A DNA stretch of 58,830 nt, filler included, from Dugesia japonica (lineage: Eukaryota), in the NCBI GenBank assembly GCA_001938525.1. It is 5 parts of 5 records of this genome, joined end to end, with 100 filler letters (N's around TTAATTAATTAA, not from the genome) between each part and the next. Parts side by side here need not be neighbours in the genome. Positions count along the whole stretch, not along the records: positions 10,205 to 27,971 come from MQRL01595632.1; 4 more parts are not named here. One strand, written 5' to 3'. The notes beneath the pieces were generated by a model. It did not search any database and was not told the origin of the DNA. It saw only the letters and a list, made by a program, of their open reading frames with translations. The first letter of the stretch is position 1, and the number at the start of each line of letters is the position of its first letter. Below are positions 10,161 to 32,342 of the stretch, in pieces. Position numbers and translations under genes: made by a program.

Positions 10161-10204
10161 NNNNNNNNNNNNNNNNNNNNNNNNNNNNNNNNNNNNNNNN
10201 NNNN

Positions 10205-11327
10205 TTTATTCAACCTCACCGAATAAATTGTGGACAAAAACCACTTAAAACCAATAAAAAATTGACCTCATTCGACCTACCGAATAAATTCTCAACTAAA
10301 AAGCCTCAAAAATATTGCTGCCTAAAAAGCCTGAAAAATTTTCCCAAATAAATAAACAGGAAAAAAGTAACACCACTTATGTAATAATTCTCGCGAGAAG
10401 ATTAATTACATTATTTAACGCACACAAATGTGTGCCGCCGCCTATTTACATTAGAAAAATTTAAAAACAGTTATGTGTTAATCCGATTACGTATAGGGTT
10501 GGGTGTGCGGGGGGGTCTACTGAATGTGTGTGGTGCTGACCACTACTATCTATCTACTATTACTAATTACGATGCTTCGGATAACGGGTGCGCGATAACT
10601 GGTTGTATCTTGATTTTTTAGTAAATATTGACAAATTTGCAGTCAAAATTTCTTCAGATATAAAGATAAAACTTTTGTGTATTTCTCTAAATTCTGCGGT
10701 CCTTTTATAGGATTTTCTGATGCAACCCGGCATCGTTCTTATTGGATGGTATTTTTATTTCAAAATTTTAGCGTTTTATTTGTGCTAGTGCCATAATTCT
10801 GGAATTTTCATAGAGTATTAGAACTCTGATTGGTGAGTATTTTTAGAGGGCCATGTGATGGTTCTTTCTTTGTTTTATTTTTATTTTTAGGTCTCCTATT
10901 GGTTCAATCTTGTGGAACCTGCAGCAGCCCTCTGGAATATGGTAAATTTTCCTTCTTGATAGATCTTATGACCCTTGTTGTTCTCTTCTTGAATTTTCTT
11001 AACCGGATTCTCTCTGACTTTCCTGAACGGAGTTATTTGCACAAAACAGATTTTGGTTCAATTTTAATTAATTTTCCCGTTTAAATTAATTGTTATTTTT
11101 CGTATTTCTTTCTTCTTCTGTTACTTATTTTCTTTAATAATTTTATTAATTTTGCGATTAGTATAATTAATCGCATTTAATTTGATCTTCAGCGTTTTCG
11201 CTCAATATTATTGTCTGGATTTTCCATACTTGCTTTTCTTACCATGTTCCCTCTCGTAATTTCTATGTTGATATTGGGCTGTTCATGACCACTTGATTTT
11301 CATTCCTCTGGGTGTTTCGCCCCAACA
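10205..11327 (-). mobile_element. Partial, diverged copy of the TG...CA element at 13287-17766
   Basis: Ends in gggtgtttcgccccaaca (reverse complement tgttggggcgaaacaccc, versus tgttggggtgaaacactc at 13287); 10690-11080 aligns in reverse to ~13590-13960. Truncated by the contig end. Confidence 0.75.
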
Positions 11328-12859
11328 TTAATGAAGATTTACAACGTAATAAATAATTATTTTTCATTATTGAAATTAAACTGATTTACAATAACCATTA
11401 CGAAAATTCAAAATGCGATTCTTTGAAACTTTGTTCAAAGCTTACTTTGATTGAATTTTTACAATTTATAATTTTGTATTGTTCAAAAATATTCGAATAT
11501 TTTTTCCAAATATTTGAATATCAAATAGTCAATTAAAACACGAATATATTCGAATATCAAGTATTCGAATAGTCAGTTTGAAATCTTTAAGTCGCATCAA
11601 AAAATGAAATTTTTTTTCATACGCCGAAGGGGGGGGCGAGCGTTAACCCCTAAACTCCCCTTGGGTACGCCCCTGCGTGTAACATTAACTTCAAAAGTAT
11701 ATACCGATAGTATCCACTTCACGATGTTTGTTTTATCGCAGTTTTAAATCAACCAAATAAAATAGATAATAAAAAAAATTTGTAAATTAAAATTTTGTTT
11801 AAAAATTTAAAATCTAATCTTTTACAGAATTTTAGATTTTACAAATAATTATATAATCAATGCTCAAGAATAAAATAAAACATATTACTAACAAAGAAAA
11901 GGCTTCGTGATGATAGTCGAAATCAGAAGCTCGAAATTAAAAGTAATCGGTCGTGCTCATTGAGAAATATGATGACTAACAGTTATAATAATCAAGATTT
12001 TTTTAAATATAAATATAATCAGATGGAAATTATAATTTTGAATATACCATCAAAAAATTGAAAATAGCTTTAACAGTTATTGATTTAGAACAAGGGTTCC
12101 CCGTCTATTTTGACTTGAGTACAAATTTTCTTTCCTCTATAATCCATCGTACCGTCGTAGCTCAATAAATAAGAAAAATCAAGAACAAATTGAAAACGTT
12201 ATTAAATTTCAATGGGAAACTTGTGGCTGCCTTTTACTGTACAACAGTATAATATTTGACATAATTTTTGAAAACTAAAAGCGAATATTCAACCTTCATC
12301 TGTATTTGTTTTTGATAAATCAGTGTGGAGAGCCCACTTTCACACAAAAACAAACGGTATAAAGAAAATTACTGCTTTCTTAAAGAAAGAAGAGGATAGG
12401 TTAAAATTTAAATTAAAAACTTTTTTTTTAAATTTAAAAATTGTTCATCGTAATCACAATCGTGTACCACTTCTTACTTCATCACATACCACCGCGTTGG
12501 AACAGCTGTTTTAAAAAAGTCTTCAAACAAGTAGACAAATAATCAATAATTAATGTATTTTAAAAGTTTTGGAAAATTGTTTAAAAAATACAGTTAAAAT
12601 TTAAAACAATTTCCACTGAAAACAAATTTTGACTTTTAAAATTTAAATTGAAATTATTATTCATTTCCGATTGTTTTTAATGCAAACTTAAATACTTTAT
12701 CTAAATATTAATTCTATTTCATGTCTTCGATTTGTAATTCTATAACACGTAAGTATATAGATATAACGGAACTTAAGCCTTTTTATTTTTCTACCCTTTT
12801 TTTAAAAAATTTTCGATTTTTCATAATTTAGAAAAATCAAAAAAAATATGCCATTTTAC

Positions 12860-13286
12860 AAATTATGAAAAATGTAAAATTTGAAAATTTGCTATTTTCT
12901 ATAAAAAATTCGAAATTTGAAAATGTGCTATTTTCTATGAAAAATTCGAAATTTGAAAATTTACCATTTTCGATAAAAAAATTCGAAATTTGTGAAACTC
13001 TGGGAAATNNNNNNNNNNNNNNNNNNNNNNNNNNNNNNNNNNNNNNNNNNNNNNNNNNNNNNNNNNNNNNNNNNNNNNNNNNNNNNNNNNNTATGAAAAA
13101 TGTAAAATCGAAAATATACCATTTTCTATGAAAAATGTAAAATCGAAAATATACCATTTTCTATGAAAAATGTAAAATCGAAAATATACCATTTTCTATG
13201 AAAAATGTAAAATCGAAAATATGAAAAATGTAAAATCGAAAATATGAAAAATGTAAAATCGAAAATATACCATTTTCTATGAAAAA
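12860..13286 (+). repeat. 35-36 bp tandem array, probable subterminal repeat of Polinton A
   Basis: Unit atgaaaaatgtaaaatcgaaaatataccattttct repeated with variants; resumes at 17767. Confidence 0.9.
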
Positions 13287-13935
13287 TGTTGGGGTGAAAC
13301 ACTCATTAACCGGGAATAAGGCCGGAAAACCAAAGCAACGGCAAAGAATAGCAGAACCACTGTCATTATCAATAATGAAATATAAAACATGTAATCATCC
13401 TTAGAAGAAAACGAATTAAAATCCAAGATGAATATGCAGAACAGGGTAACATAGAAGCAATTTACATTTGGAAATTAAGAAAAATTAATTAATTAATAAA
13501 AAACAACAAGGNNNNNNNNNNNNNNNNNNNNNNNNNNNNNNNNNNNNNNNNNNNNNNNNNNATTAATTTTAAAATAAAAAAGAAGCGAAATTAGTGGAAA
13601 ATCTGTTTTATCTAGATAACTTCGCCCAAGGAAGTCAGAAAAAAACCGGATAAGAAAAAATGCAAAGAAAACAACAAGATGCATTAGAATTGCGAAGAAA
13701 GGAAAACTTACCACCTTCCAGAATGTCGTTGTAGGGTTTCCAAGATCCGGCCAATAAGAACCCTAAAAATAAAAATATAACAAAGAACAAAAACTCACCT
13801 GACACTCTAAAAATAACCACCAACAGAATCTCAGAAAAGTCTGCAAAATTCGAGAAAAGTGGTACCAACACCAATAGAATCAGGTTATTTTAAATTAAAA
13901 ATAACCAGCAAATCTGGAACAAGTCTCAGAAATCA

Positions 13936-13950
13936 TATAAAAGGAACCCC
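13936..13950 (+). promoter_or_regulatory. Candidate TATA box of the TG...CA element
   Basis: atataaaaggaaccc; the equivalent ctataaaaggacc is on the minus strand of the second copy at ~10698-10710. Confidence 0.4.
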
Positions 13951-15710
13951 CGATTTTAGATAAAACACAATTTTTCAAACAAAAATCAAAGTCTTGAAAT
14001 CACCACAACCAATTAATTTGTAATTTTAACCATAACGAGAAATTCGATAAAAGGAATCCCAGCCAGAAATCATTTTCAATCAAGCTCAAATAGCCAACAT
14101 TATACATTTTAAATTAGTAAGGTCGAAATTACTATTAAATTGATTAATCAAACTCCTTGATAGAATTAACAAGAAGATTATTTTCAAGCTTATAAAAAGA
14201 TTAAATCGAACCCTCAGTCTGTGTTGGAAATTCGCTCTAGTAATTAACCCGTTGCAGAAACCGTCTGATTAATAATTAAGTAAGGATATGGTTATTTAAT
14301 TGGAATGATATTCAAATGCTTTTAACTATTGTAATAAATAAAAACTCTCAACTTCTAGAAATGATTATTTAATCTAATATATTTATCATTTAAATTTCAG
14401 AAAATAATCACCATTCTTAACAATATTTATTTTGAAATTATTAGATATACTATTTTAATGTAAGCTGATGAAAATAATATGAATAAACCAAACAATCCTC
14501 AAATCTATTTTTAGAAAATAACTATCTGAATTTAATCCATGATGTTACTATTTATAATTACCGTGATATCAGGGCATTAATTAATCATGTTGTGATAAAT
14601 TAATATAGTAGGTGTGTTTTTCTGTTAGTAATTTTAACATTTACAACCATGAGGGAGTTTAATCTAACGTGTTAATAAACAAAGATGTTGATCATTATAT
14701 TTTTCATTATCTTAAGAAGTTGTTATCCATAGTAAAGTACATTATGCAATATGCGATCAATAGTTAATACATCTTGATTAGAAACGCCCAACTGATCCAG
14801 TCAATAGGCATGATTGGAATTATCACAATCAACTGGCAGTGAAATGATTATATCCGCACTAGACACATACATTAGTTCTTATCCAGTTAGCATGCGCAGT
14901 GATCATTCACACGCCTACAATTATTATTTCACATCTCAGCAAGATTAAAACCATGTATGATTTCATCACCTTGGATTGTTGCCAATGGTAACACAAACAA
15001 TTAATTTTCAAATACTCTTATTTTGAGTTAGTTATTGATTAATTATTTCAATTCATTTATTTATATATCTAAATAGTCGGCTGTAAATTAAGCCTAGTTT
15101 AATGGTCAAGAATAAATTCTTGCGTAAGGTAGATGTCAAACGGACAAAATTTGAATTATCCGACACATCCAAAATTATTTCCTTTTTGATTCACTCACCA
15201 ATTCCCNNNNNNNNNNNNNNNNNNNNNNNNNNNNNNNNNNNNNNNNNNNNNNNNNNNNNNNNNNNNNNNNNNNNNNNNNNNNAAAATTATAACTATAATG
15301 ATTAAAGTTTAATAATATTGTATTTAGCAAAATGCGACCAACTATGTTTAGATTTTTCGCCGCCGTAGTAATCAAGCTTACACCAATATGATTCGTAAAA
15401 AGCAGTAATACCCAAAATAAAATTTTTAATTGCATAAACGCGTAGAAATAGAAATGATATTTTTCAATCAGTAAAGGGTAATTTCAGATCACCAGTGAAT
15501 TTGTAGAACTATCGTTAACTTCCATTTACGCAAAAAGACCCGGTCAATTGGAAAATTTAGTTCTATTGAGTTTTTACTATGCATACCTCGATTAACTGCT
15601 GACTCTAGACCCCAGAAAGTTTTAATATAATAAGCAAAATACTACTAAATTATTACATATTTTTTGATGTTAACCAAAGCAGACTTTGTTTTGATAGATA
15701 CTCTGGACTC

Positions 15711-15893
15711 ATGGCCGACCAGTTTTCAAAAATATTGAAATTGATTCGATTTAAAAGGCGTAAATTGTGGAGGCAACAACTATTGATGCATATACTATCG
15801 CATGGTGTGATCGAACATCCCGACGAAACCGATCTCCACTGTTTCGCCGAGATGTTCACATTCCCAAACCGAGTTGATTTAGATGAAGAATAA
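15711..15893 (+). CDS. Small orphan ORF, cassette 1 of the insertion
   Basis: 60 aa, basic N-terminus and acidic C-terminus; preceded by ttttgatag, followed by AATAAA at ~15946. Confidence 0.4.
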   Translation: MADQFSKILKLIRFKRRKLWRQQLLMHILSHGVIEHPDETDLHCFAEMFTFPNRVDLDEE

Positions 15894-16055
15894 TGAATCG
15901 TTTATCCTCTTTAAAAATAATTCCCTATCGTGTTATCTTATATGAAATAAACCATTTGTCTAATTTTAATTACAAATTGTCTGTTCGGATAAAATATTGT
16001 TTAATTTTTAATCACATCTTTAGCTAACCGTAATATTACAAACTGTTAATTGTAG

Positions 16056-16485
16056 AGTGGAATACAAATGGGAAGTGTGTCTAGATATCCATTCAGGCCG
16101 AACGACATTTAAAAGATATCGGAATCCGTAAAATCGAGATGCTGGAGTTCTGGTCGACCACTCCAATTTATCCCCCGAACATGCAGCCGATGAAAGAGAG
16201 TGGGACGCGACAGAACGGGCTGCCTATTATAGTTGGTGTGGTCCGAGAAGAGATAGGGTCGCCATCCCACATGCACCACTTTCGTTTGAACGATCGGCCG
16301 AGACGACACAGATAGAACGCGTATGGCATAACGGCTCTTCGTTAGTGGGGCTCACCGCAAACCTCTTGCCCCCTACATCACAGTTGTCTTCTTTCATACA
16401 AAATAATCTATGGAGTGCGAGAAATGCGTTGATCAGCAATAACAACGAAAATGCAACGGAAGAACACACTGATGTGCTCGTATGA
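16056..16485 (+). pseudogene. Exon-like cassette 2 (one in-frame stop)
   Basis: GC-rich island after gctaac...ttgtag; reads VEYKWEVCLDIHSGRTTFKRYRNP*NRDAGVLVDH...EEHTDVLV*; AATAAA at ~16499. Confidence 0.45.
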
Positions 16486-16626
16486 ACTCCATACTGGCAA
16501 ATAAAATCTTAATAAAAAATTTGTTTTCTCTGTTTTATTGGAGTTAGATAATGATTGTCTCTTTCTGCTTTGCATTGTTTTCAAGTTATACCCCATCTTA
16601 ATTAAAATTCGGTAACTTTACTCTAG

Positions 16627-16944
16627 TTATATTTCAGTGCACTCGTCTTTGAACCGATCGCCCCGACTAAAAAATTACGCGAAGATAATGAAGATAAGGA
16701 GATCACCTGGGACTTATACAAACTGGCTAAGAGGCGATGGGAAGCAGAGATCGCTACGGCCAATGCTAAGGTGAAAANGTATGAAACTAAATGCACGAAT
16801 GTCCGTGAAGAGATGAAAGTTGTACAGGACCAAGAGAGAGTGTGGAAGTCACAGGTGGAATCATTCGCCGAAATTATCCGGTTCAGCCATGACCGCGAGA
16901 ATAAACTGGTCAAAGATATCCTTCTGCTTAAAACTAAATCATAA
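16627..16944 (+). CDS. Exon-like cassette 3, coiled-coil protein without its own ATG
   Basis: After ctctag/tttcag the frame is open: LVFEPIAPTKKLRED...WDLYKLAKRRWEAEIATANAKVK...KDILLLKTKS*; AATAAA at ~17017. Confidence 0.5.
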   Translation, partial: LYFSALVFEPIAPTKKLREDNEDKEITWDLYKLAKRRWEAEIATANAKVKXYETKCTNVREEMKVVQDQERVWKSQVESFAEIIRFSHDRENKLVKDILLLKTKS

Positions 16945-17108
16945 TTAGAACCTCTGATGATTGATAAGAGCACCCAGACGAAATCCAACCCCCATGTTTA
17001 ACTCTATATCTTAAAAAATAAAATTTTGTACATCTTAATCTTGACCTCCGCTTTTACATTATTGAATATATAATAAATTCGATTATAATAGCATTCATTG
17101 TTTCTCTG

Positions 17109-17510
17109 TTGATGTTTATTCATTTAGTGCCTCGCATTGTGTTTCCCACAAGTCTCCGCAGGTACCACCGCATAATGCGCCGCCTGCTGGTAGAGCGACA
17201 TTTGAAACGAAAAACAAACCAGGCTCTATTACGACACCTAACTCAACGAGATAGGTTAATTAAGAAAATGGGCATAATAATAAAGAAACAAAACGATCTT
17301 GCAATTCAAACAAAGGCCTTAGAAAACGAAAACAAGCAGCTATGGTTAAGGAAGGTCGAGTTCTTGAAACAATATATTGCTGATTTATCTCGACGAATAG
17401 GCAACACAAATATAACACAATGGGACGACGATGACGACATAGCAGCCTTCAACTTTTTGGTGACTGAACCAGACCAGTGGTTAGATCCAGGGGCACTGGA
17501 CTTACTTTAA
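17109..17510 (+). CDS. Cassette 4, basic/coiled-coil protein with acidic tail
   Basis: 133-aa ORF; acceptor-like catttag at 17121-17127; AATAAA at ~17526. Confidence 0.5.
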   Translation: MMFIHLVPRIVFPTSLRRYHRIMRRLLVERHLKRKTNQALLRHLTQRDRLIKKMGIIIKKQNDLAIQTKALENENKQLWLRKVEFLKQYIADLSRRIGNTNITQWDDDDDIAAFNFLVTEPDQWLDPGALDLL

Positions 17511-17766
17511 AAAATTTCTTTGTAAAATAAAATATATGAAATCAAAATTGTACTTTCTTTCTTTCGTTAATAATGATAGGGAAAATAATGAACCCGAATA
17601 TAAAGGTTTGTAGGTGTGTACCTCCCATTAAGAGAAGGGGTCAACCGCTATAAACTGAAAATCTATCACATGAACGATAGGTCAAATTCTTGAACGGGTC
17701 TCCCTGAGGGCTGTTTTTCTCCAGCCACCAACTTTTTTGTCACTCAACTCAGGTGAGATCCCAACA

Positions 17767-17860
17767 AAAATATAAAATCGAAAATATACCATTTTCTATG
17801 AAAAATGTAAAATTCAAAATTTATGAAAAAACTTTCGAATGCGGCATTTTCTATGAAAAA
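17767..17860 (+). repeat. Continuation of the 35-bp tandem array
   Basis: aaaatcgaaaatataccattttctatgaaaaatgtaaaat, identical to units at 13093-13286. Confidence 0.85.
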
Positions 17861-17977
17861 ATTAAATCACAAAAAAAATTAACCTTTTAAAGAGGACCCC
17901 CATTTTTTATTTTTTTCAAGGCTAAAAAAAGATGGCTTAAAAATTTTATTTATATGATAAAAATTTATATTTAATAA

Positions 17978-20900
17978 ATGGAACCAACAACATATCAATG
18001 TATCAAATGTAATAAAAGATTTTTAAGTAGATCGGGTTTTGTAACCCAAATGAAAACATGTGGTAAAAAAAATTATAAATTTGTGTGTCGAAAATGTAAG
18101 GATCGATTTAAAACACAACAGGCGCTAAATCATCATTTAAATTTAAATGTTTGTGTGCCACTATATTGCATCGCATGTAAAAAAAAAATTACCAATCAAA
18201 CAAGTGCGAAAAAACACTATCAAAAAAGATCACATAGAATAATTGAAGAGGATCTTACAGTTGATTTATTTGATGAACTTCCTGGAGAAAGAGTAGATGA
18301 AAAAATTATTACAAAATTGTTTATTGGTCCCGATTATGCTGATTTTATTATTTATTATTTAGATGATTGTGGAATTGAATTAAAAAAATTTATTGATGTT
18401 ATAAAAAGTACAGAATTTTATTATCAAGATGAGATTGAAAAAATTATTACAAAATATTTTAAATTTGGAAAAATATTTCATGTTAATGTTTCGGTGGAGA
18501 CAAAATATTCAAAAAATACAAATAATGTCAAAGAGGAAAGAAATTATAGATCTAATTCCTCCAATAAAAGAATAACAGTAGAAGAAAAAATTCCTGAGAT
18601 CACCCAAACACTATTAACAGATTTATTAACACAAATTAATGGGGATAAAAGTGAAAGCAGTTGGACATTAGATTATGTGGTTTATTATAAAATAAGACTT
18701 GGTCTTTATAAATCAAGGGCGGGCGGAACATATGTAAAATTACCATTTATTAAAAGAGGAATTATCAACATTGAAAACAAGGATAACAAATGTTTTCTCT
18801 ATTCAATTCTAGCACAAATATACATATGAACACCCAACACGAGTAAGCCACTATAAAAAACATTTAAATGAATTTGATTTAACAGGTGAAAATTTTCCAG
18901 TGGCAAATAAAAATATAAAAACATTTGAAAAAAATAATAATTGACAAATTAATGTTTTTGAGATTGAAAACCCAAATAAAATTCCAGAATCAACTCACAT
19001 TTCTCATTTTCTTTCTAAACCACCACAAAATGAAAATAAATGTAATTTCATTAAAATAAGATAAGGCTTCGATCAAAACAAAACAGGAAGCCTTATCTTA
19101 TTTTAATGAAATCTCAAATCCGATCAATGGTTAAGTCCAACAATTATTCTCACAATAATTGTAATTATAAATGTAATTTGTTACTTTATAAAAATTTCTT
19201 TGTGCTATGTAAAAACTTAAATACATATATTAGTCGACACGGAATGGAAAATTATTTATGTATAAATTGTATGAATGCATATTCCTCACAAGAAATAGTT
19301 GATAAACATCAAGAAAAGTGTGTTCATCAAAAACCAACAAAAATTAAATTTGAAAAAAAAAGAATTTCATGAGTTTTCAGATTTTAATTTTATGATAAAA
19401 CTTCCATTTGTTGTATATGGTGATTTTGATGCATGGACTGACATAAATAATAATAAGCAAAAACCAATTTCACTCGGCATTTATCTTGTAAGTAATCAAA
19501 AGCAATTAATAAAAACTGAATATATAAAATTCACAGGTGAAAATGTGATAAAAAAATTTTTTAGTATACCTAGAAAATTTAAATGAAAAAGTAGATGAGC
19601 TTATGGGGACAAATTTTATTAAACAACAACCAAGGATTTTAAATGATGAATGTTTTTACTGTAAGAAAACACTTGGGGAAAATCCAGAAGAAGTTTATAA
19701 CTTTTTTAGTGGAGAATTTATTGGACCAGCACATGAATTTTGTAATGAAAAATATAAAAAAATTAATAAAAATTTCTTTGTTCCATTCTACTTTCATAAC
19801 GCATCTGGTTATGATAATAATTTATTTTTTCGAGAACTTTTAGAAAAACACCAAGATGATATAAAAGGAATTATACCACACACAGACGAAGAATATATTT
19901 CATTTTCCTTTAAAAGAATTAGGTTTCTTGATTCATATAGAATGTGCGCCCCAGGTACATCAATTGAAAAAATAGGTGAAATTTTAAATAAAAATGATAA
20001 ATACCCACATTTAAAATTATTCAATTTAACAGCAAAAAAAATTGCATTTCCTTACGAATATTTAAAAGGAAATACTGTGGAAGAAGTTGAGCAATTATTA
20101 AAAAGTAATAAAATACCCACAAAGGAAGATTTTTTCAGCGCATTAAAACAAAAACATATAACTTTCAGAGAATATAAGAAATTTTTAAAAGAATTTTCTT
20201 AATTAAAAAATATGTGGGAACACAAGCTTCATTATTTAAAACTCGACGTTTTAATTCTTGTAGATTTTATGGAAAATCTTCGAGAAATTTGTATGAATTA
20301 TTACGAAATCGATCCATGTTATTGTTTCTCAGCTCCANNNNNNNNNNNNNNNNNNNNNATGAAATTTACAGGAGTAAAGTTAAGATATCCAAAACAAAAA
20401 AGTTATGAGTATTGTTTAAAAAATCAGCGAGGAAGTCGTGGTGGTGTATCCGCTGTTACGGGTGAAAGACAAGTTTTCCCATTTAATAAAAATATACTAA
20501 AGAGAAAATTTACTAAAGCACAAAAAGAAGATCTCTTAAAAATATTATAACGAGGAGAAGAAATTCCAAATAAATTTTTCGAGGAAACATTTTTAAAATA
20601 TTTGGATCAAAATTCTTTATATGCGGCATGTATGACAAAACCTCTTCCTACAGGGGATTATATTGAATGTGAGGATTTAACATATGAAAAAGCAACAGAT
20701 GAGTATAATTTCCTCTATGAGGTGGATTTAGATTATCCTCCTGAAATACACGAGAAAACAAGGTATTTTCCTCTTGCACCAGAGAAGTTAAATATTCAAA
20801 ATGAAATGTTACCTCCATATCAAGCCGATTTTCATAAAAAACTTCCACAGGATAATACAAAATTAACATTAAATCAATTTGATAAAAAAAATTATATAAT

Positions 20901-21904
20901 TCAAGGAAGCACTTTAGATTTATATCTTAAACTTGGAATGTTGTTGAAAAAAATTGTAAATATAAAATTAAAATTAAATATAAAATATAAATATAAAAAT
21001 TGTAAATATATATTGTAAATATAAAGTTCCAACAAGACCATGGTTGAGAGATAATATTCTCTTTAATATTGAAAAAAGAAATGGAGATGAGTTGGGTGAT
21101 TATTTTTTCAAGCTTTTAAATAATTCATTTTATGGAAAAAGTCTTGAAGATGTTTTTAAAAGACGGATTATTGAATTTGTTACATGTAATAAAGATTTTA
21201 AAAGAGTTTCAGCAAAATTATCATTTAGATATTTTAAAATATTTTCAAGAAAATTAGCAGCAATGCACATGCAAAAAAGTAATATTAAATATAATATATT
21301 TCTAATGATTGGTTTTGCTATTTTAGAATATGCGAAAGAGTTAATGTATAATTTTATATATAATCAAATGCAACCAATGATTGGAATAGAAAATTATAAA
21401 ATTCACTACACAGACACCGATTCATTATTTATAGAAATAATCGGGCAAGAAATTTTGGACAAGTTGTCAACATTATTTGGTAAAGAAATCTTTCAAATGA
21501 AAGATGAAATGCCAAACGCTGAAATTACACATGCAAATTTTATAAGGGCAAAATGTTATGCTTTTAATTATGTAGTAAATCTTTTAACTGAGTATTACAA
21601 TAGACACAAGGGTGGATCAAAATCCAACGACATACAAATGAAAGAGTATGACAAAATTTAAGAAAATGCCCAAGAAGTGATTTCTGGAATGAATTATACT
21701 TTAAAATCAAATAAGCATGAAATAGAATTAACTTCTCAAACAAAAATAATAATGAGTGCCTATAATGATAAAGTTTTGATTGAAATAAATGGAATTATAA
21801 CTTGGCCACATGGAAATCAATTTTATTGTGAGAGATGCGAAACATGGCACTTTAGATTAGATTTTTTATGGGAAATTTTAAATTGTCAAAATTGTGAAAA
21901 TTAA
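17978..21904 (+). pseudogene. Protein-primed family B DNA polymerase (element A), disrupted; N-terminal zinc fingers
   Basis: Three C2H2/C2HC fingers, INIENKDNKCFLYSILA, FHNASGYD, RFLDS, FPYEY, YLDQNSLY, KLLNNSFYGK, YTDTDS; split into ~8 pieces by stops, frameshifts, a 131-bp insertion and an AT expansion at ~20955-21020. Confidence 0.95.
19049..19179 (+). repeat. 131-bp hairpin repeat inserted in PolB
   Basis: 26-bp perfect inverted repeat (19045-19070 / 19087-19112); flanked by duplicated ataaatgtaattt; removal restores NENKCNLLLYKN. Confidence 0.85.
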
Positions 21905-22485
21905 ACTTTTAATTTACTTAACTCAAATTTAGGACTTTCAGCTTTAGATTTTAAAATTATTTCTTGAACTTCACGAATCATAGATTTACTTGTAGAAATT
22001 TCCTCATCTGTTAAAATATTATTATTCAAGGCCTTTTGTTGAAATATAAAATGTTTATTTTTAACCGCCTCTAATTTTACAATTAAATTACTATACTTCT
22101 TTTTCTTCTTTTGAATTAAAGATGAATTCAATGCACCGGTAATTGNNNNNNNNNNNNNNNNNNNNNNNNNNNNAGGAAGACCAATTGTAGTAATTCCTAT
22201 TCCTATAGGAGTTGCAAAAATTACACTAACTATGGCCACGCCGGTTCCAATTATAATTTGAGCCACTTTTATTCCATCATCGGTAGCGGCATATTTTGCA
22301 TAAAATTTTCGATAGTGTTTTATTTTATCATTTATAAAATATAAGTCATTTTCAAAATCTTTAATTNNNNNNNNNNNNNNNNNNNNNNNNNNNNNNNNNN
22401 NNNNNNNNNNNNNNNNTTCAAGTGTATTGGAATTTATTTCTTGCTGATAATTTTTTAAATCTGGATATAATGTTTCGTCTGCCAT
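21901..22485 (-). CDS. Polinton membrane protein with N-terminal LYPDL
   Basis: Homologue of 35164-35775; central Gly/Ile-rich hydrophobic hairpin; start placed at MADETLYPDL by alignment. Confidence 0.8.
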   Translation of the reverse strand: MADETLYPDLKNYQQEINSNTLEXXXXXXXXXXXXXXXXXIKDFENDLYFINDKIKHYRKFYAKYAATDDGIKVAQIIIGTGVAIVSVIFATPIGIGITTIGLPXXXXXXXXXXITGALNSSLIQKKKKKYSNLIVKLEAVKNKHFIFQQKALNNNILTDEEISTSKSMIREVQEIILKSKAESPKFELSKLKV

Positions 22486-22509
22486 TTTATATAGAAAATT
22501 TTTCATAGT

Positions 22510-23568
22510 TCATTTAATATTTTTTCTCTTTGATGAAAACTACACCTTTGAATAATAATAAGATTATTAATATAAATATTACCCGGCAAAATTAAATAAA
22601 ATTTTTTATGTCTTCCAACCCACCATTTTTTAAATTTTTACTATTTATTATTAATTTAAATTTTCCAAGTTTTTCAAAAATAAAATCTATAATTTCATCA
22701 GAACCAAAAATATTAACAATAATACTAATTCTACTTATTTTTGTATATCCACCAACAAAAATACACATTGGGGGAATATCATTTATAACTTTAAAATAAA
22801 GTTTAAAAGGATTAGTAAGAAAAAAAATCTTTTTCATTAAGATATTCCCAACCACCCTTTATTGTTACTTTTTCTAAAATTATAAATGATGATGTGAACT
22901 CGGAATAATATGGAAATCTATTTTCATTTTTTCGAAAAAATGCATTTTAAAAATCGCATATCCATCCTCATAAAGACTAATACCTTTATATAGTAAATAA
23001 TTATTAATTTATTCTTTTATTTTTTCTAATAGGTAGAGGGATTTATTTGTTTTATACATTTCTAAATCTTCATGAATTTTTTTACATATCGTGGGTGAAG
23101 AAGATTTTTTATTTTATTTATTTCCACCACCAAAAGAAATAAAAGATCATTTTGTTTTAAAATAGAAACTACTTTTTTTTAAAACTTCAACCTCATCTTT
23201 TATTTGGTAAAAAAANNNNNNNNNNNNNNNNNNNNNNNNNNNNNNNNNNNNNNNNNNNNNNNNNNNNNNNNNNNNNNNNNNNNNNNNNNNAATGGTTTTA
23301 AATTTACTTTCAATTTCTTCATCTTTGGTTTTTAATTTACTTTTTAATTTATTAAAAAATTTTGAATTTGCCACATCACGAATATTTAATTTACTGCATC
23401 AAGTTCATGTTTGGGTGGATCAATAATTTTTAAGGATTTAATAGTGTCACCAGTTTCGTTTACAAATCTTTTTTCATTGCTTGCATCTTGTATTCTTAAT
23501 TTAGCATAAAGAGCATTAATAATTTTTCTTTCATTCCTCGCCTGTGAACTGCGTCCATATGCGTTCAT
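22510..23568 (-). pseudogene. Fibre-like gene of element A, fragmented
   Basis: N-terminus NEKRFVNETGDTIKSLKIIDPPKHELDAVN matches 32843 ORF (NENKYVNETGDIISCLKIIEDPLDLHDAVN); same gene neighbours; stops and frameshifts downstream. Confidence 0.65.
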
Positions 23569-23989
23569 TTATTTCAGAAATAATTTCATCAAAAGATTTT
23601 TCTGGAAAGCTATACAGAAAATAAATACAAAGCACACCACAAATTTTTGTTTCAAAAGATTGAACCTGTTTTTCATTAAATTTTATAATGTGCTTCTCAA
23701 GATCTTCATGAAAAGGTTTTAAACCAAAAGAGTCAAAATAATGTTTATTTTTCGTAGCAACCCAATGAGCTCCTTTTTGATTTGAATTTTGATAATTAAA
23801 AATATAATTCATGTCATTTTCAAAATTTTTAGGTAACTCATTTTTCATGTNNNNNNNNNNNNNNNNNNNNNNNNNNNAAATTTCTAATGGAAATTTTAAA
23901 AAATTTGCAATGGAATAAAGATCAAAATTTTTAGTTGTTGTAATTCCAAATGTATTTAGAAAATCTAAAATTTTGGCATTATAAAGCAT
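23531..23989 (-). CDS. Adenain-like cysteine protease
   Basis: GAHWVA...YFDSFGLKP...QVQ...ICGVLCIYFL gives the His-Asp-Gln-Cys catalytic set. Confidence 0.92.
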   Translation of the reverse strand: MLYNAKILDFLNTFGITTTKNFDLYSIANFLKFPLEIXXXXXXXXXXMKNELPKNFENDMNYIFNYQNSNQKGAHWVATKNKHYFDSFGLKPFHEDLEKHIIKFNEKQVQSFETKICGVLCIYFLYSFPEKSFDEIISEINERIWTQFTGEE

Positions 23990-24625
23990 TTTCTTAAATG
24001 AATAATTAATGATATTGTTTCATTATTAAAACCAATAGGTTTTAAATTTTCATCAACAACTTCAAATCTTAGGGCATCAATTTAACTAGAAGATATTCTT
24101 GAGCAAATAGATCGTGATGGTCTTTCAATAATTTTATATCCAAAGCTTACAGTGTTTGTTGGAAATGAATATAATAAATTAGTTTCTTTATTATTTACAT
24201 AATTTCCCTTAACTAAAAGTCAAGTAATGTTAATTATATTTTTTCATCAGAATAATATTTTCCTGTGGTGTACTCTTTTGGTTTAAAACCTAAAAGTTTA
24301 CAAAAGAAAGATTTTTCATCAAATTTTAAAATTTTATTTTCGGGGATAATAAGTAAAGATTTAGCGGTTGATGTGTCTAAAGTTATTTCCATTCCAAAGT
24401 CTTTTAATTTCTCTGAAATTTCTTCAACCTTATAAGCACCAGGATGAATTTTTCTTTTTTCCCATTAAATGTAAAATATACATCTTCTCGTTCTACATTA
24501 AAAATTGTATTATAAACAGAAAGACAAATTAAAACAACTTCATATTCATCTTTCAAATCTAATGGTCTTTTTAAATTAACTTCTAATTTTGATCCTTTAC
24601 CAGTAACTAAAAACTTATGAGACAA
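23985..24625 (-). pseudogene. Minor capsid protein (penton-like), frameshifted
   Basis: PLDLKDEYEVVLICLSVYNTIFNV, LLYSFPTNTVSFGYKIIERPS, TISLIIHLRK; homologous to 31664-32342. Confidence 0.8.
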
Positions 24626-25452
24626 ATGTTTTTAAAATATTTTTGATATTTTTTATATTTCTCTTTTGAAATTAATTTTTCATTTTTTAATTTTTTACAA
24701 ACCGATTTTATTTCTGGGCCAACATTTTCATGACCAGCTTTTTTAGCAGAAAGTAAAACTACTAATTTTTCAAATAAATCTATTGGGAGTGCAGTACCTT
24801 CAATTGGTTCAATTTTTCTTCTTTTTCTTGCTTGTAATATTTTTTGTGGGAGTTTATCTTTAATCGTTTTATAATATTCACTTTTATAACCATGAGTAAT
24901 TTTTAATTTGTTGTAATAAATATCTACATCTTGCGAGTTTACATCATTAATTTCTTTTACATTTCCATGAATTAAATTCATTACTCCATCTGAATAAGGA
25001 ACAAGTGTATTTGGAATGATAAAAAAATATGGAATTTCATTTTGTTTAACTAAATATATTTCTTTTTCTTTAATTTTTATTTTTATATAAATTTTATCAC
25101 TAACAGTTTCATAATCGAGTTGAGGAAGTGTTGCTGCTGTAAAAAAATTTTTATTTACATTCATTTCTACATCTATTGAAGTAAATGGACTTTTATTTTC
25201 AAATGGATTTGTTGGTAATTTTATTTCTGGATTTGGAATTGGATTTATTGGATTTATTAGTAAACTGATTGGTTGTGCAGATTGTTGTAAAGCGGAAATT
25301 AGTGGAGATTGTGAAAAAGCAAGAGAAGAAAGAAGAATTTTAGATTGAAGAACGTTACTAGAAAAATATTCATTATATTTTTCTTCCTTTTCAATTATTT
25401 CTTTTAATTCTTTAATTCTTGATTCTAATAAAACATGAGTATTAATGACCAT
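24607..25452 (-). CDS. Conserved Polinton protein (probable core protein)
   Basis: 281 aa; C-terminal LFEKLVVLLSAKKAGH...EIKSVCKKLK shared with 30782-31651. Confidence 0.8.
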   Translation of the reverse strand: MVINTHVLLESRIKELKEIIEKEEKYNEYFSSNVLQSKILLSSLAFSQSPLISALQQSAQPISLLINPINPIPNPEIKLPTNPFENKSPFTSIDVEMNVNKNFFTAATLPQLDYETVSDKIYIKIKIKEKEIYLVKQNEIPYFFIIPNTLVPYSDGVMNLIHGNVKEINDVNSQDVDIYYNKLKITHGYKSEYYKTIKDKLPQKILQARKRRKIEPIEGTALPIDLFEKLVVLLSAKKAGHENVGPEIKSVCKKLKNEKLISKEKYKKYQKYFKNICLISF

Positions 25453-26026
25453 TTTTATAAGGTTTTAAATAAATTCCATCACCATCTTCACTATATGATT
25501 TTAAATATAATCCACCACCCTTTTTTAAATGTTTTGATGGTTTTAAATTTTGATTTTTTAAATATTTATAAATCGCTTTACCTTGTATTTCACTTATATA
25601 TTCTACTTCATTTTTATTTGTAGTAGGAATAGTAGGAGTAGTAGGAGTAGTAGAAGCAGTAGGATTTGGGATATTAGTATTAGTATTAGCATTAAGAGCA
25701 AGTTGTTTTTCTCGTTCCAACTTTTCATTTTCAAGTTTCTTGTTATAAGCCTCTCGCGATTTTGTAACGACGGATGCAACTGTACCAGTGACAGCTGCAA
25801 CTTTACCAACACCATCAAGAAAAGAAAGTAATGTAGGTATTAAAGCCAACAGTGGAATAAAAGCACCTTCTTTTTCTTGATGTTTTTTAATTTCTTCTTT
25901 TGCTTTTTTACCAATCCAATAATTTTTACCATTAATTTTAACTGTTTTACTAAGATTGGAATTTACTAATTTTCTTAATTCTTCTTCTGTAATATTCTCA
26001 CCCATTTTTCTAAGAAAAAAGATCAT
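25442..26026 (-). CDS. Adenovirus pX-like core protein precursor
   Basis: KEGAFIPLLALIPTLL...; GGGLYLKSY and GDGIYLKPY repeats; PT-rich linker; homologue of 30299-30772. Confidence 0.8.
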   Translation of the reverse strand: MIFFLRKMGENITEEELRKLVNSNLSKTVKINGKNYWIGKKAKEEIKKHQEKEGAFIPLLALIPTLLSFLDGVGKVAAVTGTVASVVTKSREAYNKKLENEKLEREKQLALNANTNTNIPNPTASTTPTTPTIPTTNKNEVEYISEIQGKAIYKYLKNQNLKPSKHLKKGGGLYLKSYSEDGDGIYLKPYKNGH

Positions 26027-26762
26027 TTGTCATTTCATTTGTTAATTGATTTAAATATAAATATGTGTATGGTCGTTTCCAAGTGTGATTTGTTTCATAG
26101 TCATAATCATTTTTATTATTAAATGCAGAAAAAAATAAATCACTATAAAAACTATCACGATCTCTTTTATTTAATCTAAAAAATATAAAACAGTTGCGGT
26201 TATTTCTTATTGAATTTTTATCAAGGTGAAAATATGTTTGGGAAATATAAATCACATTACAATTTGAATGACGACCTCGAGTGAAATAACTTTTTTGGGT
26301 TTCTTGCTTTTCATTTACCACATCATCAAAAATTACAAGATTTTTTTTATTCCTTTTTAATTTATCACAGCGTGTGATGTCTAATGGATTACTACTTAGA
26401 ATTACTTCTATTGATTGTGGTTTTTTTATTACAAATTTCTTTTGAATGAAAAAATCTACAATCTCTTTTGGAGTGTCACAGGAATTAGGAGCGATCGCTT
26501 GCTTCTTAAACATTAATAAAATTTCTTCTTTTGTTAATCCATTTAAAAATCCCTCTTTTAATAATTGCACTTCAAATTGTTTAATTGTAGTTGAATAAAT
26601 TAATAGATTATTATAATCAAGAAAACCGGGTGTAAGTAACATTTGTGTCAAGAGAAAATTTTTTCCACATCCAGAAGACCCAATTATCAACAATCGAAAA
26701 TTACTAGGAAAAAGTTTATTTTTAAAAATTACCTGGTCTTTTTTCCAAACAAAATTACTCAT
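26010..26762 (-). CDS. A32/FtsK-like DNA packaging ATPase
   Basis: GSSGCGKN, LVIFDD, FTRGRH, YISQ; start set at MSNFVW by alignment with element B (the upstream ATG overlaps the integrase). Confidence 0.93.
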   Translation of the reverse strand: MSNFVWKKDQVIFKNKLFPSNFRLLIIGSSGCGKNFLLTQMLLTPGFLDYNNLLIYSTTIKQFEVQLLKEGFLNGLTKEEILLMFKKQAIAPNSCDTPKEIVDFFIQKKFVIKKPQSIEVILSSNPLDITRCDKLKRNKKNLVIFDDVVNEKQETQKSYFTRGRHSNCNVIYISQTYFHLDKNSIRNNRNCFIFFRLNKRDRDSFYSDLFFSAFNNKNDYDYETNHTWKRPYTYLYLNQLTNEMTNDLFS

Positions 26763-26769
26763 CCTTTTT

Positions 26770-27971
26770 TTATAGAGAGGTTTTTTGTAACTCATTCTCA
26801 TAAAATCTTCCAAGAATTCTTTTCCCATTAAAATCTAAAATTTGAAATGTTGGTGGAATTGTTGTATAAATTTTTGTCACAGTATAAATTTTAACAGTCC
26901 ATTTAAATCTATATGGTTTTGCAAATGTTTTTTTAGTAAGAAATACTCTAACGCAATCTCCTATTTTTAATTTTGGTTTTTTATATATTTTATTTTGAAC
27001 TTGTTCTTTTGTTTTACCAGTTTTATATGCTTCTGTTTGAGTTGTTCCAATTGAAGAATGAATTGTGTTGTTGTAGTCATCTACTATTTTCTGTAATAAC
27101 TCAGGGGTGATTTGTTGATTTCCAACGGCAGTAAAATGTTTAAAGAGCTTCTTTTTAAATGTTCTATTAAATCTTTTAGTCTATTAAATCCCTCATTAAA
27201 AGTAGAATAACGGTTAATATTATTTTCTTCACAAAAATCAGTAAATGATGAATTGTAAAATTCTTTATCTTTATCAACCCATAAATTATTTGGTGTTCGA
27301 ATATTTTTATCTAGAATTTCTTCAAATGCATCAGCAACCACTGGACCGGTTTTATTTTTACAAAGTTCAACAAAAGCAAATCTTGAATAAAGATCAATCA
27401 CAGTTAGTATTACTCGTTTATTATGAAATGTTAAATCTGCTGACCAAGTTTCATCGGGTTCACTTACTGTTACTTTTAGAAATTTTCTCGGTTTTTTATA
27501 ATCGCGATGAAGCTTATCAGCCATTTCATTCGTTTCTGTCTCACTCGTTTGTCCTTTATGGTTCACTTCGTTCGTATTTTCTTCTAATTTTTTTATTTGC
27601 TTTAATTTACTCTGTCCTCGTAGACTTTGACCGATCATTAATTTTCCCTTCATTGCTAATTTTACGAGCATGCCTTGAAATCTTTCAGCTAATGTAGGAT
27701 CTTCAATTTCATTAATATCATGAATTAAATGTAAATCTGCAACGTGTTGATCTTTAAGATCTTTTGAATAATAAGCAAGATCGTGTTTCAGTGCTGCTGT
27801 GTCAATTCGATTAACTGGTTCTTCTCCTGGTAATGGGTTATTATTTTCATCAAGTCTAATATCTAATCGAGTTCCCGGTCCTGTATAATTATGTCCTAAT
27901 AAATGTCGTTCACCCGGATATTTTTCCCAAGTAATTGGTTTTAAAATATTACTAACAAAACTTGATTTTTG
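26770..27971 (-). pseudogene. PLA2-integrase fusion, 5'-truncated, one frameshift near 27185
   Basis: Manual translation is open from 27971: GHNYTGPGT...PVNRIDTAALKHDLAY, then in frame WSADL...VIDLYSR...WVD; after the frameshift IERFNRT...GRFYENELQKTSL*. Confidence 0.9.
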
Positions 27972-28027: not shown

Positions 28028-28072
28028 NNNNNNNNNNNNNNNNNNNNNNNNNNNNNNNNNNNNNNNNNNNNT

Positions 28073-30286
28073 GATTTAATAATTGAAGATCCAGTTATAG
28101 ATCATAATCATTTTAATGGTGAATTTAGAGGTTATTCATGTAACACCTGTAATGTTAATGATCTTTCTATTAAAAATTTATTTATACCATTTTATTTTCA
28201 TAATGCATCAGGTTATGACAATCATTTATTCTTTAGAGAATTAATAACTAAATTTCCAAATAAAATAAAAAAGATAATACCACACTCATCTGATAATTAT
28301 ATTTCATTTCAATTTAAAAATATTAAATTCTTAGACTCAGCTAGACTACTTCCATTTACATCTGTAGAAGTAATGGGTAAATTATTAACATCTTCTAATA
28401 ATTATCCAGTATTAAAATCTTTCAATCTAAAACCTAAAAAAGTAATATTTCCATATGAATATGTAAAAGGTAATACTATCACTGAAGTAACTCAATTATT
28501 ACAATCAAGTCGAATACCAAAAAGAAAAGATTTCTTTAATACATTAACTCAAAAAGAAATATCTAAAACTGAATATTTTGAATTTTTAATTGATCTAACT
28601 AAATTTGAAAATTTATGGAATTACATGTTACACTATATGAAATTAGATGTTATAATTTTAACTGACTTCTTAGAAAATTTTAGAAATTCATGTTTAAATA
28701 ATATCCTAAAACTAGATCCATGTTATTCTTATTCAGCTCCAGGTTATGCATGGGAAACTGGAATGTTAAATGCAAATGTAAAACTTAAATATGCTAAATC
28801 TGAAACTTATAATATTTTCTTAACACTAGAAGAAGGAATNCGTGGTGGTTATTCTGGTGTATGTGGTGAACGTCAAGTATTTTCACATAATAAAATTAAA
28901 AATCCACATTCAAGACAATTGAACAAATCACAATATGAAGATCTAATTAAAATGATGAACACTCATGAATTTATTCCAGAGGATTATATTAATAATTTAA
29001 TGGAAGATACATTTATAAAATATTTAGATGAAAATTCTTTATATGCATCATGTATGACAAAACCATTACCAACAGGTGAAATGATTGAATCCAATGGTTT
29101 AATATATGAACCATCAAATGATAATAATAATTTTATATATGAAGTTGACTTAGAATATCCTAAAGAAATACATGATAAAACTAAATACTTTCCATTAGCA
29201 CCAGACAGAATAAATATTAGACCTGAGATGTTAAGTAAATACCAATTAGGTTTTAATAAGAAAATAACAAAAGATAATACTAAATTAACACTTAATCAAT
29301 ATGACAAGAAAAATTATGTATGTCTAGGTTCAACATTAGATCTATATTTAAAACTTGGTATGAAACTAATAAAAGTTCATAAGAAAATTAAAATGAATAC
29401 ATCATCATGGTTTAAAAATCATGTACACAAATTAATAACCTTAAGAAAAGAATCTAAAAGAATAAATGATGTATTTGGTGATTACATTTATAAACTTATG
29501 TTAAATGCATTCTATGGTAAAACACTTGAAAATATTAGAAATAGATGTAACATTGAAATTGTAGATAATGACAAAGATTATCAAAAGTTTGCGGCTAAAG
29601 TTAATTTTAAATCAATAAAAATCTTTACATTAAATGATTCAAATGAAGGTCATATAGCAGCAATGAATATGATAAAAGGAAAACTAAAATATAACAAATT
29701 TCCATATATAGGTTTCACTATACTTGAACATGCAAAATATGTAATGTATGATTTTATATACAATCAAATGAATCCATTAATATCTCAAGATAATTATAAA
29801 ATTCACTACAGCGACACGGATTCCATCTTTGTAGAAATAAAACATAAAGACAATCTTGATAAATTAAATACTTTACTTGGAAATGATTTATTTCAAATGA
29901 AAGATGAATTACCTAATAATGAAATAAATCAATGTAATTTTATAAAAGCAAAATCTTATGCTTACAGTTATGATACCCAAGGTTATGATTCTAGAAATAA
30001 AGGTGTAAAGAAAAATAATAAATTATTAATGAAAGATTTTAATTCAGTATTAGATGATTCTAAGAAAATAATTCATGGTACAAACTATTCATTAAAATCT
30101 GATTGTCATAATATTGAATTAGTAGAACAAAAGAAAATAGCTCTAATGGCATATGATGATAAGCGAATTATAGAAGATAACGGAACGGTAACATGGCCAC
30201 ATGGTAATCAATATTTTTGTGAAAGATGTAACATTTGGCATTTAAGATTAGACTTGATAAATAGGCAAAACCTAAATTGTTTATAA
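28073..30286 (+). CDS. Protein-primed PolB (element B), 5'-truncated
   Basis: Frame open from the contig start: VIDHNHFNGEFRGYSCNTCN, FHNASGYD, KFLDS, YLDENSLY, KLMLNAFYGK, YSDTDS, YDDKR. Confidence 0.97.
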   Translation, partial: DLIIEDPVIDHNHFNGEFRGYSCNTCNVNDLSIKNLFIPFYFHNASGYDNHLFFRELITKFPNKIKKIIPHSSDNYISFQFKNIKFLDSARLLPFTSVEVMGKLLTSSNNYPVLKSFNLKPKKVIFPYEYVKGNTITEVTQLLQSSRIPKRKDFFNTLTQKEISKTEYFEFLIDLTKFENLWNYMLHYMKLDVIILTDFLENFRNSCLNNILKLDPCYSYSAPGYAWETGMLNANVKLKYAKSETYNIFLTLEEGXRGGYSGVCGERQVFSHNKIKNPHSRQLNKSQYEDLIKMMNTHEFIPEDYINNLMEDTFIKYLDENSLYASCMTKPLPTGEMIESNGLIYEPSNDNNNFIYEVDLEYPKEIHDKTKYFPLAPDRINIRPEMLSKYQLGFNKKITKDNTKLTLNQYDKKNYVCLGSTLDLYLKLGMKLIKVHKKIKMNTSSWFKNHVHKLITLRKESKRINDVFGDYIYKLMLNAFYGKTLENIRNRCNIEIVDNDKDYQKFAAKVNFKSIKIFTLNDSNEGHIAAMNMIKGKLKYNKFPYIGFTILEHAKYVMYDFIYNQMNPLISQDNYKIHYSDTDSIFVEIKHKDNLDKLNTLLGNDLFQMKDELPNNEINQCNFIKAKSYAYSYDTQGYDSRNKGVKKNNKLLMKDFNSVLDDSKKIIHGTNYSLKSDCHNIELVEQKKIALMAYDDKRIIEDNGTVTWPHGNQYFCERCNIWHLRLDLINRQNLNCL

Positions 30287-30298
30287 TTAAAATAGCGA

Positions 30299-30772
30299 AT
30301 GAATCCAACAGAAGAAGAATTAGAATCTATAGTTAATTCTAAAAAATGTAAATCTGTAAAGATCAATGGTAAAAATTATTATATTTCTAAAAAAGTTAAA
30401 GATGAACTTAAAAAACAATCGCATAAAGGTGGATTTGCATTTCTAGCAGCAATACCAGCAATTATAACTGCATTAGCAGGAACTGCAGGTATTGCATCTG
30501 GTATTGCAAGTACAGTTGCAAATTCTAGAGATGTAATTAAAAAACAAAAAGAGATTGATATATTAAGTGCTAAACCTGAAACTAAAAATGAAGGTAAAGG
30601 TTTATATCTTAATCCTTATCAAGGTAATGCATTACACAAATATTTTAAAAATATTAATCCAGAGATGAAAGATCTAACAAGAAACTTTAAAGATGGAATA
30701 CAAATAACTAAAAGTGGAAATGGTTTATATTTAAATCCATATAATCCTAATAAAGAAAATAGAGAAGAATAG
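30299..30772 (+). CDS. Adenovirus pX-like core protein precursor
   Basis: HKGGFAFLAAIPAIITALAGTAGIAS resembles the pX C-terminal GG|ILPLLIPLIAAAIGA.PGIAS segment; GxGLYLNPY twice. Confidence 0.82.
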   Translation: MNPTEEELESIVNSKKCKSVKINGKNYYISKKVKDELKKQSHKGGFAFLAAIPAIITALAGTAGIASGIASTVANSRDVIKKQKEIDILSAKPETKNEGKGLYLNPYQGNALHKYFKNINPEMKDLTRNFKDGIQITKSGNGLYLNPYNPNKENREE

Positions 30773-30781
30773 CCTACAGAC

Positions 30782-31651: not shown

Positions 31652-31663
31652 ATATCTAAGGAC

Positions 31664-32342
31664 ATGTCTCATCAATTCTTAATAGTTGGTAAAGAACATG
31701 AATTAATTATGGATTTAAAATATCCTATAGAATTAGATTCAGAATATGAACTTGGATTNNNNNNNNNNNNNNNNNNNNNNNNNNNNNNNNNNNNNNNNNN
31801 NNNNNNNNNNNNNNNNNNNNNNNNNNNNNNNNNNNNNNNNNNNNNNNNNNNNNNNAATAAAAGAAATATCAGATAAATTAAAAACTAAACATGAAATAGA
31901 AGTCATTCCAGATACATCAACAATAAAGTGTAATTTAATAATCCTTAAAGAAGATTTAACTTTTGATGATAAATCTTTCTTCTATAAGATCTTAGGTTTT
32001 AAACCTGGAACATATAAAGTAGGAAAGTATTATTCAGATAATAAAATTNNNNNNTCAAATATTAACATGATAAATGTAACATGTAATATTGTTAAAGGTA
32101 ATTATGTTAAATCTGATAAAAATGAAACAGAACAAATAAATCTTTTATATTCATTTCCTATAAATTCAGTTCCATTTGGTTATAAAATATTAGAAAGACC
32201 ATCTACTTGTATTTATTCTAAAATTAATACAAATTACATATCAAGATTGAAATTTAATGTCATGGATGAAAACTTTAACACTATAGATTTTAAAAATGAA
32301 ACTATTTCAATATTAGTACATCTAAGAAAATATAGACATTAG
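31664..32342 (+). CDS. Minor capsid protein (penton-like), spans an N gap
   Basis: YPIELDSEYELG...ILGF...INVTCNIVKG...LYSFP...GYKILERP...DENFNTIDFKNETISILVHLRK. Confidence 0.85.

Follow-up and report, generated by a model that had tools for sequence, protein, structure and literature searches.

The question raised by this locus is how a mobile element could express four small, unrelated genes that lie one behind another inside a single insertion. The insertion, 4,480 nt at 13287-17766, was found in DNA of the planarian Dugesia japonica (GenBank assembly GCA_001938525.1, record MQRL01595632.1), within the window, which is the whole stretch of 58,830 nt, filler included, that was analysed and to which all positions refer. 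The reading preferred here, with a probability of about 0.45, is that four conserved small frames, called cassettes 1-4, are alternative last exons, each of which would be spliced to one short non-coding leader driven by a TATA box, with some of the start codons split between leader and exon.

Four small, probably coding frames and the state of this copy

The cassettes are the following.

15698-15951, plus strand: cassette 1, intact; putative acceptor 15697, own ATG at 15711, open reading frame (ORF) of 60 amino acids (aa) to 15893, AATAAA at 15946
16056-16516, plus strand: cassette 2, broken in this copy; putative acceptor 16055/16057, frame ending at 16485 after about 142 codons, AATAAA at 16500 and 16511
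16638-17022, plus strand: cassette 3, frameshifted near 16660; TG directly after putative acceptor 16637, coiled-coil-like frame ending at 16944, AATAAA at 17017
17128-17531, plus strand: cassette 4, intact; in-frame TG directly after putative acceptor 17127, frame of 127 codons ending at 17510, AATAAA at 17526

The first-pass annotation had described four GC-richer islands in one orientation, each preceded by an acceptor-like AG and followed by a stop codon and AATAAA, and this layout was confirmed on the plus strand, with a GC content of 0.41, 0.48, 0.44 and 0.42 in cassettes 1-4, compared with 0.24-0.29 for the three spacers. In cassettes 2-4 the acceptors lie where the annotation had placed them, cassette 3 having an alternative AG at 16626 beside that at 16637, while the AG of cassette 1 ends at 15697 and not near 15699. 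The step in GC content falls at the acceptor in cassettes 2, 3 and 4 (16070, 16635 and 17127). AATAAA follows the stops at 15893, 16485, 16944 and 17510 after 52, 14, 72 and 15 nt; the chance of finding this hexamer in an 80-nt stretch of the window is 0.25, which gives about 0.004 for four out of four, and 14 are present on the plus strand compared with 6.6 in shuffles (P about 0.01). From each hexamer to the next acceptor the gaps measure 109, 126-137 and 110 nt and contain 41-54% T. The longest frames exceed those in shuffles of the same segments (P of 0.035, 0.014, 0.007 and 0.001 for cassettes 1-4, 1000 shuffles), the segments having been picked after the fact. As had been claimed, the cassettes are unrelated to one another, with no mutual match by tblastn at E up to 1, and 13950-15700 yielded neither an ATG-led 35-codon frame of the same layout nor a tblastn match that would indicate a fifth cassette.

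Related copies were obtained from 8 of the 24 runs listed, of which three were raw RNA and the other five contig runs (three guessed to be RNA and two of unknown kind). Copies from the contig runs are mostly 86-95% alike and reach both ends of the insertion and all four cassettes. Differences counted among the 80 rows listed (with 241 and 400 further rows) fall on 35 distinct sites in the four frames, from which one was dropped for a codon containing N. Half of the remaining differences are synonymous (17/34, where a fraction of 0.22-0.28 is expected) and none creates a stop, giving P values of 2e-4 to 5e-3 that are optimistic, since the sites lie linked on a small number of contigs. When the other five frames are read at the same sites, 4-14 synonymous differences result, and the synonymous share by cassette is 3/8, 10/17, 1/3 and 3/6 for cassettes 1-4. 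Most of the other indels listed inside the frames leave the frame intact (3 nt at 16441, 9 nt at 16681 and a paired +1/-1 at 15835-15839), the exception being one contig that lacks 2 nt at 16833. Among 1.84 billion proteins scanned, a single homologue of cassette 1 was found, P0001, a 60-aa protein from a single 1,041-nt Logan contig, which aligns without gaps from the first Met to the last residue (43% identity, E 4e-5). It is highly probable that the cassettes are conserved protein-coding small frames, and the earlier proposal of an orphan gene battery carried by a mobile element is borne out by the high-copy family, the synonymous excess and this full-length homologue.

This copy of the battery is decaying. 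In cassette 2 the start is broken and a TAA at 16129-16131 interrupts the frame 24 codons into it. The frame of cassette 3 is shifted by an indel at 16659 that separates it from its relatives in five of five contig runs, and its first in-frame Met comes only at residue 52 of 94. All three contig runs that cover the start of cassette 2 (X9, X11 and X13) have an indel at 16057, and the relatives with it appear to carry a complete start codon there. Because cassettes 2 and 3 have decayed, their missing ATGs are partly damage. The first-pass annotation had taken both for design and had overlooked the stop and the frameshift; in cassette 2 the absence looks like damage to this copy, and in cassette 3 it looks like a split start codon combined with the frameshift.

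Identity of the insertion

The features on which the identity of the element rests are listed below, with splice boundaries marked by a slash.

13287-17766, strand not assigned: insertion, likely a solo long terminal repeat (LTR), 4,480 nt; starts TGTTGGG, ends CCCAACA
13287-13975, plus strand: left block, also present in the window's second copy; CCAAT at 13751 and 13871, TATAAAAGG at 13936
13706-13714, minus strand: consensus-like 5' splice site G/GTAAGT (13711), G/GTAAAT in the paralogue
17550-17766, strand not assigned: right end block, common to many family members according to contig depth tables
10600-11327, minus strand: second family member, inverted and truncated, with the same terminus (ending at 11327) and promoter block

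The termini form a 7-nt inverted repeat, TGTTGGG and CCCAACA, with TG...CA ends that follow the TGTNR pattern given in PMC2836005. The insertion splits a 35-nt tandem array upstream of Maverick zinc-finger/PolB genes and is flanked by a target duplication, AAAA at 13283-13286 and 17767-17770, whose length of 4 or 5 nt is not firm as it lies in an A-run. The left block is 70.5% identical to the second copy over 387 columns (E 3e-37), and the family is dispersed and high-copy, sharing the same terminus, with 148-833 contigs placed per contig run. Related loci were not found in metagenome or viral contigs, and 10200-18000 has no Rfam match. Judged by its sequence, the 4.5-kb insertion is probably a solo LTR of a Ty3/gypsy element, since TG...CA ends, a duplication of 4 nt and another copy that shares the terminus are hallmarks of LTRs.

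No single order of U3, R and U5 fits cleanly, the plus strand having CCAAT, TATA and many AATAAA and the minus strand a conserved donor. The A-rich sequence, CCAAT and TATA of the plus strand look like U3, in which case the battery would sit in an R/U5 region of 3.8 kb; against this order count the three AATAAA upstream of the TATA at 13936, and five in the paralogue. The minus-strand donor at 13711, kept in the paralogue, would fit R/U5 on the minus strand and place the battery antisense within U3; on that strand, poly(A) hexamers are absent from the left block. Near-consensus 5' splice sites at 13711 and 13798 on the minus strand point to the left end, only the former being well kept in the paralogue. 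A further 136-nt sequence at 54726-54861 has TGTTGGG...CCCAACA ends, shares its last 10 nt with the right end of the insertion and lies between GTGAA and GTAAA flanks; it is perhaps a small solo LTR.

A proposed shared leader weighed against its rivals

Two candidate modules for starting and splicing a message lie upstream of the cassettes.

13936-14122, plus strand: candidate promoter/leader 1; TATA box, ATG-free stretch, predicted donor A/GTAAGG at 14116/14117
14191-14285, plus strand: candidate promoter/leader 2; TATA box, ATG-free stretch, predicted donor A/GTAAGG at 14279/14280

The TATA boxes at 13936 and 14191 are the only plus-strand TATA matches of the element, and CCAAT and the first TATA are kept in the paralogue at about 70% identity. 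AGTAAGG occurs three times on the 57-kb plus strand, and two of these lie 181 and 89 nt past the two TATA matches. In X11 and X14 contigs the sequence is kept on either side of 13963/14113 and the middle differs. RNA polymerase II would start about 30 nt past the TATA at 13936 (or 14191), the donor of the leader would join one of the four acceptors, and the AATAAA behind the chosen cassette would end the message. Both leaders end in A and are free of ATG, and the TG after 17127 forms codon positions 2-3 of the cassette 4 frame, as the TG after 16637 is in frame for cassette 3 in relatives (from the indel listed in five of five contig runs). Splicing would thus build an A/TG start for cassettes 3 and 4, the final A of the leader completing A/UG, while cassettes 1 and, in relatives, 2 would supply their own start codon. 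A YAG is followed by TG at 50 of the 1048 YAGs in the window and at both 16637 and 17127, a comparison made after the fact. Of the 14 AG/TG sites, those of cassettes 3 and 4 are preceded by the most pyrimidine-rich sequence (0.72 and 0.67).

Several results weigh against this reading. No joint from 14116 or 14279 to any acceptor was found in the 8 runs, among the 9 and the 15 of 16 joints listed, so that the shared spliced leader of the first-pass annotation keeps its candidate promoters and donors and lacks the junctions from a common upstream exon by which it was to be checked. Contigs run unspliced across acceptors, poly(A) sites and donor 1 (for example 15831-16115, 16344-16687 and 14008-14237), and the raw RNA runs yielded 3, 42 and 7 reads, one of them at least 95% alike and nearly all below that. 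The third-position excess taken alone is not significant (15/34, P 0.13), cassettes 1 (3/8) and 3 (1/3) are weak when taken singly, and the GC step of cassette 1, at 15799 (interval 15754-15820), lies about 100 nt inside the ORF and off its acceptor. Protein, Pfam, PDB and ESM Atlas searches returned no homologue or fold that gives any cassette a function. For the 4.5-kb element no primer-binding site (PBS), polypurine tract, paired LTR or gag-pol was seen, and it is because the first three were not seen that the solo LTR is called probable and no more.

Unspliced contigs neither show nor exclude spliced messages, because full-length element RNA or DNA gives the same. In one X14 contig of 2,829 nt a different middle lies between the left block and cassette 4, and two X11 contigs have about 240-250 unplaced letters directly before cassettes 1 and 2, which could be diverged spacers or leaders. 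No loose end falls at any acceptor among those listed (with 251 and 387 further rows). Cover of the leader is low and diverged in the runs examined, and the little cover of 14300-15700 was not taken as evidence.

The main rival, possible and clearly less probable than the shared leader, is an operon, in which cleavage at each poly(A) site would divide one pre-mRNA and trans-splicing of a spliced leader (SL) would cap the cassette that follows. Trans-splicing of this kind is described for Schmidtea mediterranea, together with candidate flatworm operons with gaps of up to 300 bp; in S. mansoni the distance between cistrons has a median of 99 bp (PMC12582326). The T-containing gaps of 109-137 nt found here are short enough for such operons. 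The end of one X10 contig falls precisely on 16637, as would be expected of a leader whose last letter is G, a single contig end carrying little weight, and in cassette 4 a short ORF in the SL frame ends in TAATG (17173-17177), which overlaps an internal ATG at 17175. Flatworm SLs end in AUG (PMC12582326), and the one acceptor at which this AUG would be in frame is 16626, there only in the shifted cassette 3 frame of this copy. It would be out of frame at 15697, 16055, 16057, 16637 and 17127, and cassette 3 would then have no start until residue 52. The operon also leaves the TG after two acceptors and the A/GT donors unexplained, and trans-splicing, the other mechanism suggested in the first pass, is accordingly less well supported in spite of its operon-like spacing. 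An unlikely reading is that the cassettes are unspliced genes with weak starts of their own, cassettes 3 and 4 beginning from GUG (the G of AG plus TG) or from internal AUGs. All contigs seen are unspliced across the spacers, and AG then TG does give an in-frame GTG, but full-length element RNA or DNA would also yield such contigs, the spacers have no plus-strand TATA match and measure 150-185 nt including a poly(A) signal, and the pyrimidine content before the two AGs is high.

Marginally less probable still is a leader outside this LTR copy, where a donor close to the 5' end or within the internal region of a full-length element would splice to the cassettes of the 3' LTR and a solo LTR would be silent. 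A donor-like CAG/GTGAGA lies at 17753, 13 nt before the right end of the insertion, and the retroviral accessory genes nef and sag, which lie in U3 (PMC2664473), provide a precedent. This donor ends in G, which would give GUG and not AUG, no back-joint from 17752 occurs among the joints listed, and the modules of TATA, leader and donor inside the element would be left unexplained. The least probable of the readings considered is that the element is a non-autonomous DNA transposon with cargo genes, or else that the islands are non-functional fragments that were captured; for this reading Ginger-like TGT ends and a 4-nt duplication (PMC2836005) and the unseen link to gag-pol can be cited. Ginger terminal inverted repeats are about 40-270 nt long (PMC2836005) compared with 7 nt here, the insertion has no transposase frame, and the synonymous excess and P0001 speak against a lack of function.

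The shared leader with alternative last exons resembles the adenovirus major late unit, in which one promoter and leader serve alternative acceptors and poly(A) sites that select the product. The adenovirus unit belongs to a DNA virus, expresses structural genes and has families of acceptors for each poly(A) site, and it is used only as a working analogy. That an invertebrate LTR forms a self-contained unit of this type, in which a single promoter and leader inside it serve four microprotein genes, each polyadenylated separately, and splicing creates two of the start codons, is more tentative than the shared leader itself.

Predicted products, known systems and surrounding DNA

The predicted products would likely be accessory regulators of the element, cassettes 3 and 4 as coiled-coil proteins, the latter also having a basic region and an acidic tail like that of an activator. 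The basic N-terminus and acidic tail noted earlier for cassettes 1 and 4 agree with residue counts, there being 8 and 12 K+R in the first 40 residues and 9 and 9 D+E in the last 35. Cassette 1 was modelled from a two-row alignment with helices at 2-29 and 37-48 (pLDDT 79, pTM 0.49), and cassette 4 from its single sequence as one helix at 7-92. The sequence of cassette 4 has a basic N-half, heptads with hydrophobic columns of 6/8 and 6/7 and an acidic aromatic tail, while the hydrophobic columns of cassette 3 are 8/10 and 6/10. Composition and predicted helices may point to a role as transcription regulators, and we infer from the analogy to accessory proteins of retroviruses that the products may regulate transcription or silencing of the element.

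Searches added little to this picture. Cassette 4 had no match in the protein search and none to the bZIP (basic leucine zipper) Pfam profile at E 0.01, a basic region and heptads being all that it has in common with that class. Cassette 1 had none in the word-indexed protein set and P0001 alone in the full scan, which was also the only return of the two-row profile, and none in PDB by sequence or fold at E 0.001. The ESM Atlas gave nothing usable for either, and the protein comparison of cassettes 2 and 3 covered Pfam and the window. Pfam matches of cassettes 3 and 4 were rejected as below cut-off and resembling coiled-coil noise. Also rejected was an LxCxE-type motif in cassette 1, of the kind that binds pocket proteins, as its Glu is out of position and P0001 does not share its Cys.

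Among titles and abstract openings searched in the literature, with repeat-library entries outside that scope, no description of a multi-gene battery in an invertebrate LTR was found, and a prior description is possible. Planarians have giant Gypsy-like LTR elements with accessory ORFs, Burro and GYPSM1 (PMC6431247), and the GAG-ENV-POL errantiviruses of S. mediterranea have no LTR or PBS entry in six of six rows (PMC13524379). Because their LTR search was limited to 3-kb flanks, the missing entries leave room for very long LTRs, and these errantiviruses are candidate parents of the element. The likeness, drawn from descriptions only, is that of large planarian Ty3/gypsy elements with accessory ORFs; their accessory ORFs or domains lie in the internal region or polyprotein, whereas here they lie in the LTR. 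Expression of planarian LTR elements is tissue-specific and PIWI-controlled (PMC8532177).

Accessory frames in the LTR are known from sag of mouse mammary tumour virus (MMTV), lentiviral nef and the LTR ORFs of HML (human MMTV-like) elements (PMC2664473), and an antisense accessory frame in or driven from the LTR from HBZ of human T-cell leukaemia virus type 1 (HTLV-1; PMC10186651). The LTRs of these retroviruses measure at most about 1.3 kb with one established gene, whereas here 4.5 kb hold four cassettes, each with its own putative acceptor and poly(A) signal. Splicing also assembles the start codon of env in springer-subclade errantiviruses (10.1101/2023.08.03.551782), where the leader gives AU to a single env of the internal region, unlike the A that would be given here to two small LTR ORFs. 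Grande, RIRE2 and Retand, LTR elements of plants, likewise carry conserved orphan ORFs on most copies, some of them antisense (PMC7264820), but as single larger ORFs between pol and the 3' LTR.

LTRs are usually viewed as cis-acting ends, and in none of the retroviruses compared do they hold more than one accessory gene. If the shared leader with split starts is true, a Ty3/gypsy element would have splicing-gated regulation in the style of complex retroviruses, in which full-length element RNA could not translate the two splice-made starts. Solo LTRs could then go on making proteins once gag-pol is lost, and every solo LTR would be a mobile regulatory gene battery.

The window is AT-rich eukaryotic DNA with parts joined at 10105, 27972, 38782 and 47280, and besides the insertion it includes the following region.

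17978-21661, plus strand: Maverick (Polinton) zinc-finger/PolB region, from Pfam; separate from the battery

Two related Maverick/Polinton copies, at 17978-27971 and 28028-38200, both encode PolB and an A32 ATPase, and only the first has integrase and phospholipase A2 domains; no Pfam major capsid match was found among the 34 frames scanned. The tandem array interrupted by the insertion, at 12864-13286 and 17767-17860 with a unit of 35-36 nt, lies at the upstream end of the first Maverick. An ACT-repeat-rich end at 10380-10570, which we take to resemble a Maverick terminus, adjoins the truncated paralogue near 10570. The inverted repeats found at 2266-2339 and 19101-19174 were rejected as ends of the insertion, as they belong to a dispersed hairpin element. 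This element, which is similar to miniature inverted-repeat transposable elements, is found at 2266-2534, 19046-19174, 49283-49481, 56531-56623 and 58353-58392, and one copy interrupts the PolB region of the first Maverick. A decayed reverse transcriptase/RNase H fragment lies on the minus strand at 38978-39700.

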